The notes under the pieces: model-generated
Seen by the model: only the letters and a program-made list of their open reading frames with translations
Databases searched by the model: none
Told to the model about the DNA's origin: nothing
Translations under genes and position numbers: made by a program
Part shown: positions 1 to 6,124 of the stretch, piece after piece
How the letters are laid out: every line of letters begins with the position of its first letter
Position numbering within the stretch: position 1 is the first letter of the stretch
Sequence record: MH560358
Source of the DNA: Escherichia virus KFS-EC
Reading direction: 5' to 3' (one strand)
DNA length: 64,000 nucleotides

Positions 1-278
1 TAAAATAATTTTTTGATATTTTTCTATGATGTTTGTGTAGGTCACGTCAACCGCTAGCACCGTTGCTTCGAATCCACCGTTTAACCAATGGCTATGATCA
101 TGATCGTGAAAGAAACCTAGACCAGTACGAAGACCTTCTTTATATTCGGCGCGTACATTTAGATCATCATCGATAAACAGATAAAACCATGAATTTTTAC
201 TAGGATTGATGATACAACCTTTCAGATTAGGGAGAATATCACGACTAAGAATAAACTTATCACCTACTTTGAACATAA
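1..278 (-). CDS. hypothetical protein, paralog family A member (3' end cut by window edge)
   Basis: Minus-strand open frame from ATG near 278 running off the window; predicted C-terminal HDHDHSHW...ATVLAVDV motif shared with four nearby ORFs. Confidence 0.4.
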
Positions 279-280
279 TA

Positions 281-682
281 TTAGTCCTCACTTATAAGGT
301 CAAACCAATTGTTTTTCGCATAATGCTTAATGCGTGCTTGATCTGCTTCCGCTGGTGATAGATTCCATGCAACCACTACAACTTCTGACGCATCGTCATC
401 CGTTTCTGATACCCAATGATTGTGATTCATACAGTTATTTGCTATCGAGTGAGCAAATGATTTCATCACTGGAGACGTATAATCATAGTAACGGATTTTC
501 AGATTTTCATCAACATACAAGTAGATCGTATAAGGTTTATATTCAGTAACCAGTAACAGACAGTTACGCAATTCTGGGAAAATCTTTTTAGTTAATTTCA
601 TTTTATAATCCTCGGTCTCGGCTATAGTACACGGTACGCCATACAATTTCATGTTTCGTGTCGCTCCAGCACACGATCTCAT
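281..682 (-). CDS. hypothetical protein, paralog family A member
   Basis: ORF track; motif NHNHW...EVVVVAW; real start probably an internal ATG at 652 or 601 because the track start overlaps the upstream gene. Confidence 0.45.
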   Translation of the reverse strand: MRSCAGATRNMKLYGVPCTIAETEDYKMKLTKKIFPELRNCLLLVTEYKPYTIYLYVDENLKIRYYDYTSPVMKSFAHSIANNCMNHNHWVSETDDDASEVVVVAWNLSPAEADQARIKHYAKNNWFDLISED

Positions 683-842
683 TTACTCTTAAATCTTTGT
701 TATCAACAAAAGATGAACATTGTGACGCTTCTTTCATCATTTTATCTGCTGTTTTCTCATCAAATACAGCACAGATTTCTTTATACACTCGATAATCTTT
801 GAATTGACTCTGAATACCCATAATTAACACCATTCCAACCAA
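603..842 (-). CDS. hypothetical protein, paralog family B member
   Basis: ORF track; N-terminal FKDYRVYKEI...DKMMKEASQCSSF aligns with the neighbouring ORF 781-1044. Confidence 0.4.
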   Translation of the reverse strand: MVGMVLIMGIQSQFKDYRVYKEICAVFDEKTADKMMKEASQCSSFVDNKDLRVNEIVCWSDTKHEIVWRTVYYSRDRGL

Positions 843-1044
843 TTGTTTTTGAGAAAACGTTTATCCACTGTTGAGTGTAGCATGTTTCTTTCCATGATAC
901 AATACGAGTGGAATAATGGTTTTTGTTTCCAGAAAAGGACGGGCATTTTGATGCATCTTCCATCATCTTTTCGGCGAACTCTGGTGCGTATACTCGCAGG
1001 ATCTGTTGATATGCTTTGTATTCTTTAAATTTGCTCATAATCAT
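781..1044 (-). CDS. hypothetical protein, paralog family B member
   Basis: ORF track; FKEYKAYQQI...EKMMEDASKCPSF aligns with 603-842; 3' end overlaps the paralog. Confidence 0.4.
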   Translation of the reverse strand: MIMSKFKEYKAYQQILRVYAPEFAEKMMEDASKCPSFSGNKNHYSTRIVSWKETCYTQQWINVFSKTIGWNGVNYGYSESIQRLSSV

Positions 1045-1303
1045 TCACTACCTTATCAGCTTCTTTTGTTGTTTTTACATCAACTGCGATAACTCGTAAA
1101 GGTTCGTCATGGTTCCACCAGTGGTCATGAATATCAGCTTGTGATTTATCACCAAAGGAATCACGAATATCATTTTTACATTTATAGCTAATGTGACCTT
1201 CATAGTCAACATAAAGGTAATTATCGAAAATCGGCGTTTTTAAGATCATACCGAAAAATCTTTCTTTGTGTGTCTTATCCAGCGTTACAGTAATTCGCAT
1301 CAT
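1025..1303 (-). CDS. hypothetical protein, paralog family A member
   Basis: ORF track, ATG start; motif YLYVDYEG...HDHWWNHDEPLRVIAVDV. Confidence 0.5.
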   Translation of the reverse strand: MMRITVTLDKTHKERFFGMILKTPIFDNYLYVDYEGHISYKCKNDIRDSFGDKSQADIHDHWWNHDEPLRVIAVDVKTTKEADKVVNDYEQI

Positions 1304-1315
1304 AATATATTCCTC

Positions 1316-1495
1316 TTAGAAAGGGATGGTCATTTCTTGAGCTTGTACATTCTCGTTAGGATTAAACTTCATCCAACCGATATTGTCTACCAGCATATGT
1401 ACATTTTTATCATATCCTACGTGAGTAGTCAACACTAAATGTGCTTTACCTTCAACGATGATTTCCATGTACTTCTGAACTTCGATAGCTTTCAT
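1316..1495 (-). CDS. hypothetical small protein (59 aa), not in ORF track
   Basis: ATG at 1495 preceded by GGAGAATCAAA leader and a stem-loop promoter; TAA at 1316; hand-translated MKAIEVQKYMEIIVEG... Confidence 0.4.
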   Translation of the reverse strand: MKAIEVQKYMEIIVEGKAHLVLTTHVGYDKNVHMLVDNIGWMKFNPNENVQAQEMTIPF

Positions 1496-1527
1496 TTTGA
1501 TTCTCCGTTTGTTGTCTTGATGGGAGT

Positions 1528-1556
1528 ATCTTACTACTCCCTTTAATCATTGTCAA
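1528..1556 (-). promoter_or_regulatory. sigma70-like promoter TTGACA-N17-TAAGAT; hairpin GGGAGTAGTAAGATACTCCC (1522-1541) overlaps the -10
   Basis: Read on minus strand upstream of gene 1316-1495. Confidence 0.5.
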
Positions 1557-1559
1557 CTA

Positions 1560-1727
1560 TTATTTGTTAATTTCCGGTGCGTTGCTCGGATAGTAACCTT
1601 CTTTAACACCTAGATATTTTGCAACCATTCCGGTGATCTTCTGTGCTACTACGATATCGAATTTCAGGTAGTCTTCACCGTGGTTTGCTACAATGTATGC
1701 TTCGCATTCTGCTTTAGTCTGGAACAT
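1560..1727 (-). CDS. hypothetical small protein (55 aa)
   Basis: ORF-track frame; start moved to internal ATG (MFQTKAEC...) because the track N-terminus translates the promoter; SD AGGAG upstream. Confidence 0.4.
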   Translation of the reverse strand: MFQTKAECEAYIVANHGEDYLKFDIVVAQKITGMVAKYLGVKEGYYPSNAPEINK

Positions 1728-1761
1728 TTTTGATTCTCCTATATCTCGTTGGTATGTGTGC

Positions 1762-1790
1762 ATTATAGGGGATCGGTGATCCCCTGTCAA
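1762..1790 (-). promoter_or_regulatory. sigma70-like promoter TTGACA-N17-TATAAT with palindromic spacer GGGGATCACCGATCCCC
   Basis: Exact consensus hexamers with 17-nt spacer on minus strand upstream of gene 1560-1727. Confidence 0.6.
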
Positions 1791-1795
1791 CAACT

Positions 1796-2089
1796 TTATA
1801 ATGCTTTATATGCGTATTTCATAAATTTGTCTGCCACTTCATTGGCATGTTCAGATTCTACGCCTGATTCGAGAACAATAGCTAGGTCGGTTTCGTCATT
1901 CCCGCCGTACCAATGATTTGATGTTCGATTTTTTTCAATTGGAAATTGGTCACTTTTATCTGTGCGACAAAATACATCTAAATGCTCGTCGATGTAAAAG
2001 ATCCAATCTTCATAAAGAATAACGGTATTAGCAAGATTTTTATTGCCTTCAACGAAAGGTTCGGCTACAAACAAATTAGTATGTTCCAT
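1796..2089 (-). CDS. hypothetical protein, paralog family A member
   Basis: ORF-track frame; start at internal ATG (MEHTNLF...) with SD GAGGAAAA; motif IFYIDEH...SNHWYGGNDETDLAIVLE. Confidence 0.5.
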   Translation of the reverse strand: MEHTNLFVAEPFVEGNKNLANTVILYEDWIFYIDEHLDVFCRTDKSDQFPIEKNRTSNHWYGGNDETDLAIVLESGVESEHANEVADKFMKYAYKAL

Positions 2090-2105
2090 AGTATTTTCCT
2101 CAAAA

Positions 2106-2297
2106 TTATACAGCTTCGTAAACTTCCCAATGTCCAACACCAGCACGCTTAACGAAAAGGTTTTCTTTGATGTTATTCATAAACGTCTGGATGGATTTAA
2201 TGCGGTTTGAAGGTTTCCATTCTTCGTTGGCATTGCGTCGATACATCATAACATTACCAGTTCGCTTATATTCAGCAACCATTTTAAGACCACACAT
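2106..2297 (-). CDS. hypothetical small protein (63 aa)
   Basis: ORF track; ATG with SD GAGGA upstream. Confidence 0.35.
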   Translation of the reverse strand: MCGLKMVAEYKRTGNVMMYRRNANEEWKPSNRIKSIQTFMNNIKENLFVKRAGVGHWEVYEAV

Positions 2298-2354
2298 AAT
2301 ATTATCCTCAATTTGTGGGAGAGTATTACCCCTCCCAATGATTGTTATGTTATA

Positions 2355-2675
2355 TCACACAAAATGGCGTGTCAATGCTTCTTTTGCGGTTCCGCTAAGA
2401 CTTTCGATCTCGCCTGGCATAACATCAACCGCCAGAACTTCTACAACATCCTCGGACCCTAACCAGTGAGTATGACCTTTGTAGAACTTGATAACCAGAC
2501 TACCTTCCTCGTCCCATTTAACGCTATCGCTAGCCCACCACACATCACCGTCGATAAAGTTGATGTAAAGCACACTACGCCACATTGAATTAATTACTTT
2601 CAATACTGCGCCTTTCATCTCTTCCACGGTATGGTCTTCCATTTTGAAGACCTCACCTACCTGAACTTTTGCCAT
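2355..2675 (-). CDS. hypothetical protein, paralog family A member
   Basis: ORF track, ATG start; motif LYINFIDGD...HTHWLGSEDVVEVLAVDV. Confidence 0.5.
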   Translation of the reverse strand: MAKVQVGEVFKMEDHTVEEMKGAVLKVINSMWRSVLYINFIDGDVWWASDSVKWDEEGSLVIKFYKGHTHWLGSEDVVEVLAVDVMPGEIESLSGTAKEALTRHFV

Positions 2676-2692
2676 TTAGTCACCTCTCTTTA

Positions 2693-2872
2693 TTACATAA
2701 CACTCACGCCAGCCGTTGAAAGTTGATGTTTCAACTGAGCATTTTCTGCTACCGTCAAATCAATGATTTCTTGTGACGCTGCAATCATATAGCCATTGGT
2801 GATATTGTTTTGCATCAGTTCAATGGTTTCTTCGTTGTAGCGGATTTTAGCGATGATTTCGTTGAAGTTCAT
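2693..2872 (-). CDS. hypothetical small protein (59 aa), not in ORF track
   Basis: ATG at 2872 after GGAGAATCAATT leader and stem-loop promoter; TAA at 2693. Confidence 0.35.
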   Translation of the reverse strand: MNFNEIIAKIRYNEETIELMQNNITNGYMIAASQEIIDLTVAENAQLKHQLSTAGVSVM

Positions 2873-2906
2873 AATTGATTCTCCTAGTTCGTTTCGGTAT
2901 GTGTGT

Positions 2907-2936
2907 AGTATAGGGGAGTTTAACCTCCCCTGTCAA
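2907..2936 (-). promoter_or_regulatory. sigma70-like promoter TTGACA-N18-TATACT with palindromic spacer GGGGAGGTTAAACTCCCC
   Basis: Minus-strand motif upstream of gene 2693-2872. Confidence 0.5.
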
Positions 2937-2944
2937 CAACTTTT

Positions 2945-3256
2945 TTAAAGTTTTTCCATGATAACGGTCATAATTACATCTTCTGCGCGAGCGGTCAGAT
3001 TATCAGCGTCAGCATGTGGGCGGTTGGTTGTTACAGAGATAACACCGTTGCGCACTGGTTTGATATTGATATCAAGATGATCCGCGAAACGTTCGCCAGT
3101 TACAGAATGAATTTTGGTGTTAAATTCTTTTGCCAGTGCCTTGCGAACTTCACGAATCAGGATAGCGTTTTTCAGTTGGTTCTCCGCGCTCATGGTCTTC
3201 TGGGTGTTCATGGTTCCGTCGAAGTCAATCATTGGCAGCGTTACGATGTATTTCAT
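2945..3256 (-). CDS. hypothetical protein (103 aa)
   Basis: ORF track, ATG start after GGAGAATCAAAA leader. Confidence 0.45.
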   Translation of the reverse strand: MKYIVTLPMIDFDGTMNTQKTMSAENQLKNAILIREVRKALAKEFNTKIHSVTGERFADHLDINIKPVRNGVISVTTNRPHADADNLTARAEDVIMTVIMEKL

Positions 3257-3301
3257 TTTTGATTCTCCGTTTAAGAAAGTGTGTTTCGTTTTGATGTGTG
3301 T

Positions 3302-3330
3302 AGTATAGGGGATACGTGATCCCCTGTCAA
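3302..3330 (-). promoter_or_regulatory. sigma70-like promoter TTGACA-N17-TATACT with palindromic spacer GGGGATCACGTATCCCC
   Basis: Minus-strand motif upstream of gene 2945-3256. Confidence 0.5.
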
Positions 3331-3343
3331 CAACTTTTTTGAA

Positions 3344-3688
3344 TTATTTTTTCATGAGCTTAATGGCTTCTTCCATAGCCAGCACATTTCGATAGTTAGG
3401 GTATCGTGTTAGATCGTCATACATTCGCTTAAGGGTGGAAACTTCCTCAAACTCTGGGTTTTCTAGATACAGTTGAACAAATTGTTTCTCTACCATCTCG
3501 GCTTTTAGCTTGTCTGCTTGTTCCTGTTCATATGATTTCGTTGGACCCAACACCAACAAAATGATAAAGGTGATCAACGGGCTAATGATCAATGATAGGA
3601 TAACATAACCGATAACGCTACGGTTTAAACGGCTTGCATACATGCCTACCAGGAAAACAAAAAGGATATAGATAAACAGAAAGAACAT
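3344..3688 (-). CDS. hypothetical membrane protein (two predicted hydrophobic segments)
   Basis: ORF track; N-terminal FFLFIYILFVFLVGMYA and second hydrophobic stretch. Confidence 0.5.
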   Translation of the reverse strand: MFFLFIYILFVFLVGMYASRLNRSVIGYVILSLIISPLITFIILLVLGPTKSYEQEQADKLKAEMVEKQFVQLYLENPEFEEVSTLKRMYDDLTRYPNYRNVLAMEEAIKLMKK

Positions 3689-3695
3689 ATAATGG

Positions 3696-4169
3696 TTACT
3701 CCTTATTTTCGCGCTCGTACTTTTCGAAATAAAATTCTACTGGCTGGTCATGAATTGACAGCAAGCCAAAGCGTTTAGCCGCTCGCAATCCCATATTGCG
3801 CTGAATGTACTTCTGGAAGTTCTCGCGTATACACTTACGCCAGTATTCTAAGCCCATACAGCTTTTATAAAGATTGCATTGCACACACGCCGGATTCATG
3901 TTATCAAGTATATCATGTTCCGGTTTATGCATTCCTACAACCTTATACTTCCACGATCCATCATCATTACGGGCAATTCGTCCATTTTCATCATAGACTA
4001 CCTTTGAGCGTCGCAATACTGGTTTGATGTGGTCTGCGTGCCAGCGATCCCCTAGTTCCTCGCCACAATAGGCACAGCGTCCACCATATTTCATTTTCAG
4101 GATCTGGCGTTGCTCTTTCTTTGACAATTTTTTAGGTTTAGGGGCTTTCGACCCTTCATTATCACACAT
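3696..4169 (-). CDS. HNH endonuclease (zinc-finger type), putative homing endonuclease
   Basis: CAYCGEEL...HADHIKP...N...CVQCN motif set. Confidence 0.7.
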   Translation of the reverse strand: MCDNEGSKAPKPKKLSKKEQRQILKMKYGGRCAYCGEELGDRWHADHIKPVLRRSKVVYDENGRIARNDDGSWKYKVVGMHKPEHDILDNMNPACVQCNLYKSCMGLEYWRKCIRENFQKYIQRNMGLRAAKRFGLLSIHDQPVEFYFEKYERENKE

Positions 4170-5658
4170 CGAATACCTCTTTTACTGTATTTGCAGTGGT
4201 CTTGTCGTAGCGAATACGTTTGATGATCGGGAGAAATAAAGAGAACTCCGGTTCATCTTCTTTACGTGATTTGCTGCGAATGTACCCGTTGCATGTCATC
4301 TCAATGACTTTTCCAATCAGGTTATGACGGTCAGCCCATAACATTTCTCGGTCTAGTTCATTTCGACGATCGAACGGAATTACACGTTCAATACCATCAT
4401 CACCTTTTTCGGTTGTGGTGTCGGTTAATCCCGATCCGGTGTTAGTCATCATTCGTCCGCACGCACTACGGACAGTAAAACCGCCTACCTTATTAGGATC
4501 TTTACTATGCGGATATACATCAACAATTTCAGCGTCGAAGTCAATCACTTCTTTAAATTTAACCTGATCTTTACTGCGACGATCTTCAAATACACCATGT
4601 AAATTTTTAAGGATAATACCTTCTAAGCCCATGTTTACATAGCGATGATATACTTCGCGAGCTTCATCGATATTGTTAACTACAGTATTTTCGATTATCT
4701 GAACACGAGGATCGTTAAGTTCTTCAACAATCTGTTTTAGTTCTTCGAATCGATCTTTATATTGCTTCGTTGCTTTCTCGTTTCCGTAATACACATCACG
4801 GTCGATAACATCCCAGACAGTATAAACAATACATTGGGCTTCTTCTTTTGGAATAGTTCCTTTAAGTGATTTGTTGAGGATACCATTTCCGGTCTGACGG
4901 TCTGCAACAACGGATTCTTTTACTGCTTCCGCTACTGGCGTTAATGGCATTTCCTCTTCTTCAAATATCCATGACAGAGTACCATCATAAACGCTTTCAA
5001 CGAAGTTCTGCGCTGGTGTTTGCGAAAGGGTAGGCATATATACCAATTCGCCATCTAGAACAATTCCACGGCCTCGTAGACGCTCTAAAACCGCAAACAA
5101 ATCATCAAGTCCCTGATAGGTATTACCTGAACGGGTATAGATTGCTAATGTTTCCCCGTCAATATCAGCCATACCACGAGCGCCATCGCTTTTAAGTTGT
5201 GCATACGCCGGATACTTGATATTAGCAATAGTCTTATCAGAACATGACGATGCAAGGTGGCACGGCTGCTGGGGGATCAGTTTCTTCCATACCTTGTTTG
5301 CGGTGGTAGCGGAACAACCGCATTCCAAATCACGATTCAGGACCATCATTGCAACTTTAGCATCATCTTCTGACAAGCAGGTCAGAGTATCGGTAACTAG
5401 CTGTAATGCTGCGTTACCAGTTACTTGACGCGTGGCAAGTTTATTTTTAAAGACCTGTAATGCACCGGATAAAGACAATACAGACGAATAACGCGATGGT
5501 TTATCGTATTTCTTTACGCCAAACGTAACCTGTTTGCAATATGCCAGATAAAAGCATTCTTTCAGCGTTTCATTGCTCGCGGATTCTTTCAGGATCTTTT
5601 CTTTCAGCGATGTTTTGTCTGTTGCTGCAAGCTGGTTAATGATATTAAGAATTGACAT
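4162..5658 (-). CDS. 30: ATP-dependent DNA ligase
   Basis: Adenylation motif AQLKSDGARG (KxDG); ~500 aa; T4-like position; start set at internal ATG (track start is GTG). Confidence 0.9.
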   Translation of the reverse strand: MSILNIINQLAATDKTSLKEKILKESASNETLKECFYLAYCKQVTFGVKKYDKPSRYSSVLSLSGALQVFKNKLATRQVTGNAALQLVTDTLTCLSEDDAKVAMMVLNRDLECGCSATTANKVWKKLIPQQPCHLASSCSDKTIANIKYPAYAQLKSDGARGMADIDGETLAIYTRSGNTYQGLDDLFAVLERLRGRGIVLDGELVYMPTLSQTPAQNFVESVYDGTLSWIFEEEEMPLTPVAEAVKESVVADRQTGNGILNKSLKGTIPKEEAQCIVYTVWDVIDRDVYYGNEKATKQYKDRFEELKQIVEELNDPRVQIIENTVVNNIDEAREVYHRYVNMGLEGIILKNLHGVFEDRRSKDQVKFKEVIDFDAEIVDVYPHSKDPNKVGGFTVRSACGRMMTNTGSGLTDTTTEKGDDGIERVIPFDRRNELDREMLWADRHNLIGKVIEMTCNGYIRSKSRKEDEPEFSLFLPIIKRIRYDKTTANTVKEVFDV

Positions 5659-6124
5659 TTTCACCTCGTTTTGTTAAACGTTCACGAATATCATTGAGGA
5701 TACTACAAAATTCCGATTCAGTCAATATAGTCTTTAACGGATCAGTTCCACCTATGCTATGACGTAATTTCTTATTTCCGGTAGCGAGTAATGCTTTACA
5801 AAATTCTGGGTTATTCCGTGCCATCGTAACAAATGCCAGATGTACCAGTCTGTAATAATGCTCACTCATTCGATGAATCGGGCGACCCTGAAAATATAAC
5901 ATGTGATTCTCAATCTTTTCAGATCTTCCGGTTCTTTTTGCTTTGCCACCGTGCATCAAAAAGATTTCTCTTTGTCTCTGAGGGTTCTTAAATCTTAGCC
6001 CCTGTAAAAATCCTTCTGTGCTGTTAATATCGCAACCAAATAGACGGAATGGTCTTTTATTGAAATTACTCAATTCACCCGATGGATAAGGTCCACCCGC
6101 ATAGATATCAATTTCAGAAGTCAT
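5645..6124 (-). CDS. NADAR (YbiA-like) domain protein
   Basis: 159 aa; SNFNKRPFRLFG...TEGFLQGLRF and ...ALLATGNKKLRH resemble the E. coli YbiA/NADAR fold (alignment from memory); 3' end overlaps ligase start. Confidence 0.55.
   Translation of the reverse strand: MTSEIDIYAGGPYPSGELSNFNKRPFRLFGCDINSTEGFLQGLRFKNPQRQREIFLMHGGKAKRTGRSEKIENHMLYFQGRPIHRMSEHYYRLVHLAFVTMARNNPEFCKALLATGNKKLRHSIGGTDPLKTILTESEFCSILNDIRERLTKRGENVNS

Follow-up and report, generated by a model that had tools for sequence, protein, structure and literature searches.

Locus and genes of the family

The subject of this study is a family of small genes at the beginning of a 64,000-nucleotide stretch of DNA from Escherichia virus KFS-EC (sequence record MH560358), the whole of which is hereafter referred to as the window. 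The source was identified by alignment as a Krischvirus, an RB49-like T4-type coliphage: bases 1-6000 matched 58 phage records and aligned at full length with Krischvirus genomes, at 98.3% with Shigella phage Sf20 and 98.1% with Escherichia phage RB49, and window base 1 corresponded to RB49 position 119,947. The array is located downstream, in the direction of transcription, of the gene 30 DNA ligase (4162-5664) and an HNH endonuclease gene (3696-4169), and belongs to a long series of small minus-strand 'hypothetical' genes extending from the ligase gene to alt, which has been termed a hyperplastic region (PMC2839356).

The original prediction, made from the letters of the window, had described five minus-strand open reading frames (ORFs) with a shared C-terminal HxHW...VLAVDV signature, and all five were present with the quoted motifs in the translations. 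The coordinates given for the third to fifth ORFs were retained, and those of the first and second were refined to 1-276 and 281-601, respectively. The family members are listed below with their RB49 orthologs, the positions encoding the motif, the PHROG family, the E-value obtained with the profile from which the respective copy had been left out, and the ratio of nonsynonymous to synonymous substitution rates (dN/dS).

1-276, minus strand: copy A, RB49p199 ortholog, 92 amino acids; HSHW encoded at 85-96, stop codon just before window base 1; phrog_17255; leave-one-out E = 3e-8; dN/dS 0.06
281-601, minus strand: copy B, RB49p200 ortholog, 106 amino acids; HNHW encoded at 413-424; phrog_9345; leave-one-out E = 4e-12
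1025-1303, minus strand: copy C, RB49p203 ortholog, 92 amino acids; HDHW encoded at 1118-1129; phrog_15972; leave-one-out E = 3e-6; dN/dS 0.22
1796-2089, minus strand: copy D, RB49p206 ortholog, 97 amino acids, isoelectric point (pI) 4.5; SNHW encoded at 1910-1921; phrog_15965; leave-one-out E = 6e-4
2355-2675, minus strand: copy E, RB49p208 ortholog, 106 amino acids; HTHW encoded at 2463-2474; phrog_16486; leave-one-out E = 2e-7; dN/dS 0.28
Outside the window, two genes beyond its edge: copy F, RB49p197; leave-one-out E = 1.5e-11

For copy B, a start at 601 was considered more likely than one at 682, on the grounds that it is the annotated start of RB49p200, that a GAGGA ribosome-binding site precedes its ATG and that the start at 682 overlaps the upstream gene. 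The family proteins were small (85-110 amino acids), each gene was preceded by a ribosome-binding site, and the genes were tightly packed, with frequent overlap or abutment with their neighbours.

Homology of the six copies

Homology was assessed with profile hidden Markov models (HMMs) from each of which one copy had been omitted. In every case the omitted copy was the best match outside the training set among 864 ORFs (E from 3.9e-12 to 6e-4), and the best unrelated ORF gave an E-value of about 0.2-0.4 or weaker (two at 2.2). The weakest copy was D, and the D-type alignment was matched to that of all other types by hhalign with 98.2% probability (E = 3e-14, 73 columns). The signature proposed for these ORFs is thus real, every copy being recovered by the profiles. 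The count of five, on the other hand, has to be raised to six per genome: RB49p197 was found by the five-copy profile, in the training of which it had no part, with E = 4e-12, and when a whole RB49-type genome was scanned, six members and no more reached E<=1e-20, the next ORF scoring 0.26.

The paralogs were about 20-30% identical to each other, which indicates that the duplications are old and that the copies have been maintained. Pairwise BLASTP similarity was weak for some copies and not significant for B-D and A-D. The five window proteins fell into five separate PHROG families of 'unknown function' with full-length matches (E = 1e-52 to 1e-72) and faint cross-matches, so the genes had already been catalogued as hypothetical proteins. 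Each of PHROG 17255, 9345, 15972, 15965 and 16486 covers one window protein; they are kept there as five unrelated families, whereas here they constitute one superfamily together with RB49p197. The sequence comparisons established the six genes as anciently duplicated copies of one lineage-restricted family, and the merging of six catalogued 'hypothetical protein' families into one, with the addition of the sixth copy, is new.

Conserved motif and composition

Among the 813 six-frame ORFs of the 64-kb window, the H.HW pattern was present in four family members only, with SNHW at the corresponding place in D. Across the family, only His-Trp was strictly invariant and the His two residues upstream was nearly invariant, being replaced by Ser in the window D allele and absent in P0068; the predicted HxHW motif was therefore upheld in its His-Trp part and not in its first His. 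The motif is accordingly written below as (H)-x-H-W. Besides His-Trp, no other polar residue was invariant, and there was no invariant acidic ligand. The codons of the motif His residues varied between CAT and CAC with the residues retained, from which it follows that the constraint acts on the protein, and an explanation of the motif at the DNA level was ruled out by this synonymous variation.

His-rich runs surrounded the motif in A (HDHDHSHW) and C (HDHWWNHDE), and the N-termini of A and E resembled a KOW hairpin (FKVGDKFIL...LKGCII) that was absent from B, C, D and F. Net charges ranged from about +3 to -15 with no strong overall charge bias in the family, D alone being markedly acidic as a type, and most copies were neutral to strongly acidic (pI 4.2-6.8).

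Predicted structure and searches against known families

AlphaFold2 models were obtained for B (predicted local distance difference test, pLDDT, 89.5; predicted template modelling score, pTM, 0.83) and for D (pLDDT 87.9, pTM 0.82), and the order of the elements was the same in both. At the N-terminus there is a short strand or turn, followed by three strands and by a loop or helix that varies; then come the short (H)-x-H-W turn, a final strand ('VLAVDV') and a C-terminal helix often starting with E-A-D. The fold is thus predicted to be a sheet of four to five strands with a helix at the C-terminus, in which the (H)-x-H-W turn is well ordered and precedes the last strand.

Foldseek comparison of the B model with BFVD returned Krischvirus paralogs of the family only (probability 0.98-1.0). 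The profile search of PDB sequences was empty at E<=10, and PADLOC gave zero families at E<=1 for the six copies and the fusion protein described below. Nothing significant was obtained for the copies in Pfam, and no enzyme family; a PROCT match for A (E = 0.0035) was under the family cut-off and was dismissed, and none of the five copies matched a KOW-type Pfam family at E<=1. Neither a profile match nor a fold match with a catalytic His motif was found for HIT, 2H phosphoesterase, metallo-beta-lactamase or HNH proteins, nor a fold match with GIY...YIG, Arg and Glu for the GIY-YIG nuclease domain, nor sequence or fold homology to characterised inhibitors (Acr, Tad, Acb and others). Since BFVD returned paralogs only and PDB sequences and PADLOC were empty, membership in the HIT, 2H, metallo-beta-lactamase, HNH, GIY-YIG, KOW or known anti-defence families is not supported. 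The profile and structure searches by which the original prediction was to be judged thus found the shared residues significant and gave no known relatives outside the family, all of the matched PHROG families being of unknown function.

Small phage anti-defence and immunity proteins were counted among the closest known systems, namely the Tas1 immunity protein PA14_01140 (6ox6_B), AcrIIA7 and Tad2. The SH3-like/KOW small beta-barrels (Spt5 KOW, eL27, RimP) differ from the family in that there was no Pfam KOW match, with scores under accepted thresholds, and in that they have no counterpart to the (H)-x-H-W turn or the C-terminal helix. No mention of the family was found in the literature when it was searched by gene name, by genus and by topic. 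The evidence for a confidently predicted fold without a detectable relative is likewise new.

Distribution beyond Krischvirus

A word-indexed search of 5.8 billion proteins gave close Krischvirus-type orthologs of the six types only, and a second such search with a widened profile gave no further lineages or fusions. When 1.84 billion representative proteins were scanned exhaustively with HMMER, 21 matches were obtained at E<=0.001. Of these, 19 were small ORFs of the family, and those that were traced were on Krischvirus-like or uncultured phage contigs. The marginal matches P0077 (965 amino acids, with internal repeats) and P0078 were judged spurious as repeat proteins without meaningful domain overlap. 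By sequence search, the family is confined to Krischvirus and a few uncultured sister lineages.

Two uncultured contigs were informative. On the 20-kb contig L005, the gene order rnlA-spanin-cd-31-30.3-ligase-HNH-small ORFs-alt-tail was as in Krischvirus, the closest cultured genus, to which its ligase was about 72% identical, and the family was represented by two D-type copies and no other types. On the 2.1-kb contig L003 (SRR8048117_15661), p209-like and p204-like small ORFs preceded four adjacent genes with five family domains, and one of the proteins, P0065 (823-1434), consists of two family domains naturally fused head to tail. The copy number by lineage was accordingly two in L005, six in Krischvirus and at least five domains in L003.

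Evolution within Krischvirus

Ten genome regions were compared, namely the window and the corresponding regions of RB49, Sf20, GEC-3S, G2248, E26, G2494, FL38, ECD7 and PHB13. All six types were present in the same order in the nine other Krischvirus genomes, and the window held five of them with F past its edge; the neighbouring genes p192, p195, p196 and p211 were variably present. Mean amino-acid identity within the ortholog groups was 80-99% across the genus, and pooled dN/dS was 0.06 for A and 0.22-0.28 for the other copies, which corresponds to purifying selection. Given the presence of the six genes in all genomes examined and these dN/dS values, the expansion is old and stably maintained, contrary to the rapid divergence that had been proposed for it. 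The ribosome-binding sites, the purifying selection and the retention in every genome examined demonstrate that the genes are real and functional.

Copies C and D each occurred in two allele classes (window compared with L008-L014), with minimum identities of 55% and 68%, respectively, and the D alleles encoded either 97 amino acids with 'RTSNHW' or 102 amino acids with 'DTHNHW'. Because synonymous divergence between the classes was raised in proportion (about 3-fold), the sequences suggest that alleles were replaced through recombination with phages more distantly related, and not that the proteins evolved fast.

Promoter cassettes and transcription units

The stem-loop promoter cassettes noticed between the genes are the published early-promoter stem-loops (PeSLs; PMC2839356), which were defined by Arbiol et al. 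(2010) by sigma-70 -35 and -10 hexamers, a G/C-rich stem-loop within or overlapping the promoter, and then a Shine-Dalgarno sequence and ATG. Three of them were assigned to the units of the array as follows.

1528-1556, minus strand: PeSL-type sigma-70 early promoter, TTGACA-17-TAAGAT, with the stem-loop GGGAGTA gtaaga TACTCCC overlapping the -10 hexamer; heads p204-C-p202-p201-B-A
1762-1790, minus strand: PeSL206/205, consensus TTGACA-17-TATAAT, with the stem-loop GGGGATC-acc-GATCCCC in the spacer; terminates p209-E-p207-D and starts p205
2907-2936, minus strand: PeSL promoter, TTGACA-18-TATACT plus stem-loop; heads p209-E-p207-D; repeat families D1 and D2

The features of the definition were found at 1727-1790, with TTGACA-17-TATAAT, GGGGATCaccGATCCCC in the spacer and then AGGAG and ATG. 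Repeat families D1-D3 linked 1725-1809, 2870-2955 and 3265-3349 as three copies of a PeSL cassette of about 80 nucleotides (-35, G/C stem-loop, -10, Shine-Dalgarno and ATG), two of which, PeSL206/205 and PeSL211/210, had been assayed in PMC2839356. None of the three was detected by a simple terminator scan, because the cassettes have no T-run. A further PeSL was present just past the window edge in the annotated GEC-3S genome, and the family members were thereby distributed over three PeSL-bounded units, p209-E-p207-D, p204-C-p202-p201-B-A and p198-F, with the single gene p205 between the first two.

A lacZ fusion of PeSL206/205 was reported to yield about 13,000 Miller units, the stem-loop of PeSL211/210 (at about 3300 of the window) terminates as well as rrnB T1, and PeSL recombination yields insertions, deletions and mini-circles in the hyperplastic region (PMC2839356). 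Since strong sigma-70-type PeSL promoters head the units, it is almost certain that the family is transcribed early and that host RNA polymerase does so in its unmodified form. The PeSL-bounded ORFan cassettes described previously (Arbiol et al. 2010, PMC2839356; Comeau et al. 2014, PMC4122927) share with the present array the genome, the region and the promoter and stem-loop elements, with PeSL206/205 and PeSL211/210 in or beside the array. Those reports deal with regulatory cassettes and the dynamics of insertion and deletion and do not mention this paralogous family, and the ORFans highlighted in them are variable, whereas the six family genes are stably retained. The assignment of the locus to a T4-type hyperplastic accessory region was borne out by the PeSL cassettes together with the interleaved pair of paralogs p201 and p202. 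The family is a lineage-specific paralogous ORFan family of such a region, and nothing so far marks it as mechanistically unusual.

Possible functions of the proteins

The hyperplastic regions of T4-type phages contain small early genes by the hundred to which no function has been assigned, and several such genes in other phages encode inhibitors of host defences or machinery. For small early accessory proteins of T-even-type phages, a role as binder or host modulator is the one most often found. It is tentatively proposed that the family consists of non-enzymatic, stoichiometric binding proteins which modulate or inhibit host factors early in infection, in host takeover or anti-defence, both of which the original prediction had named and which stay plausible as guesses. 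The proteins would be made right after infection from the PeSL-headed units by host RNA polymerase and would bind host factors stoichiometrically, with their modulation or inhibition as the consequence. The (H)-x-H-W patch would be the shared functional or structural core, possibly a site for a metal or ligand to which both partners of a dimer contribute, as the two-domain fusion P0065 suggests, and paralog-specific surfaces could direct each copy to its own target.

Several points weigh against this proposal. None of the copies is connected by homology with a target, defence system or phenotype, and the functional part is inferred from gene size, timing and location. A metal site of two His residues is weakened by the Ser in the window D allele and the lack of the first His in P0068, an invariant acidic ligand for it is missing, and dimerisation is suggested by a single natural fusion only. 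Stable retention of six copies under strong purifying selection is also not usually expected of arms-race genes.

A role as small enzymes that depend on a metal, or as binders of small molecules, is unlikely. In such proteins a divalent metal or a signal derived from a nucleotide would be bound at His-x-His-Trp, for hydrolysis or in the manner of a 'sponge', and the paralogs would serve different substrates. The near invariance of H-x-H and the flanking His-rich runs of A and C agree with such a site, and the tandem fusion P0065 would fit its location between two domains, but Pfam, PDB sequences and PADLOC gave no match, the RB49-type D allele does without the first His and His-Trp is the only invariant pair among the polar residues.

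Equally improbable are derived SH3-like/KOW-like small barrels binding the transcription or translation machinery (RNA polymerase, ribosome or RNA) and tuning phage expression rather than countering defence. An ortholog of copy A (P0058) is labelled 'KOW2-KOW3 domains of Spt5' in a public third-party annotation (TPA) record, in line with the hairpin-like N-termini of A and E, and RB49-type phages are not known to carry the T4 middle-mode activator MotA. Against this, Pfam KOW gave no match even at E<=1, the pI of most copies argues against nucleic-acid binding, and the N-terminal hairpin is confined to two of the six copies.

A more elaborate version of the proposal made above, which we regard as improbable, would have a new fold forming homo- or heterodimers with the (H)-x-H-W turns at the interface, where a metal or a nucleotide-derived signal would be bound, and the six paralogs would be an 'arsenal' in which each neutralises a different host defence or factor. 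RB49-like T4-type phages use unmodified cytosine, and such an arsenal might matter especially there. If the copies do have distinct targets, the family would be an accessory protein scaffold diversified by duplication; otherwise it is one more conserved ORFan family. Its six genes, its single invariant motif and the one natural fusion make it a compact experimental target in either case.

It is very improbable that the genes are passengers of PeSL-mediated cassette shuffling, kept by cassette mobility without benefit to the phage and sharing the motif by common descent only. Their location in a hyperplastic region with PeSL recombination (PMC2839356) and the different copy numbers of Krischvirus, L005 and L003 are compatible with such an origin, but little weight can be given to functionless passengers because of the purifying selection on every copy; the motifs were moreover preserved over synonymous change, the order of the six was kept while neighbouring genes varied, and the low identity of the paralogs points to old duplications that were maintained. 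Finally, chance resemblance among unrelated short ORFs, to which the weak BLASTP pairs and the five separate PHROG families might have pointed, has a probability close to nil and is already refuted by the leave-one-out recovery of every copy, the independent sixth member, the hhalign match of D to the rest, the confinement of H.HW to the family within the window, the same element order in two independent AlphaFold2 models and the Foldseek pairing of the B model with BFVD models that were built independently for family proteins of other Krischvirus phages.

Neighbouring genes

The second, interleaved paralog pair that had been reported was confirmed by BLASTP (40% identity, E = 1e-16).

603-821, minus strand: p201, phrog_8471
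781-1044, minus strand: p202, phrog_8471

Both genes overlap neighbouring genes and are co-transcribed between C and B. They are unrelated to the six-copy family, to the profile of which they gave no match. In the uncultured contigs L005 and L007, relatives of p201/p202 are neighbours of family members. A conserved two-gene module of a small ORF and a family member was considered, as the p209-E and p202-B adjacencies recur in relatives, but the partners are missing for the p209-, p202- and p198-like genes of L005, and the adjacencies were therefore taken as residual synteny only. The p198 gene (L001, 3629-3916) and the p210 ortholog (window 2945-3256) are alike by eye in a 'VRxAxAKEFNxK' stretch, with no significant BLASTP similarity, and their relationship is unproven.

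The HNH endonuclease gene (3696-4169, minus strand) overlaps the end of the ligase gene and is 81-87% identical to the copies in the uncultured relatives L004 and L005. Compared with about 72% for the L005 ligase against Krischvirus ligases, it looks more recently exchanged than its surroundings, in the manner of a homing element. The RB49p211-like gene (3344-3688, minus strand), the product of which is hydrophobic at its N-terminus, has a membrane-protein annotation in Sf20. The gene was present in RB49, Sf20 and PHB13 and absent in GEC-3S, FL38 and ECD7, which accounts for the matches recorded as '94% covered'. In RB49 this gene was described as unique relative to phi1 and as a homolog of an ORF of the Vibrio fischeri superintegron (PMC2839356). 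The gp30.3 ortholog (5645-6124, minus strand), directly upstream of the ligase gene, is annotated in Sf20 as a member of the NADAR superfamily (IPR012816), and the copy in L005 matched Pfam Phage_30_3.

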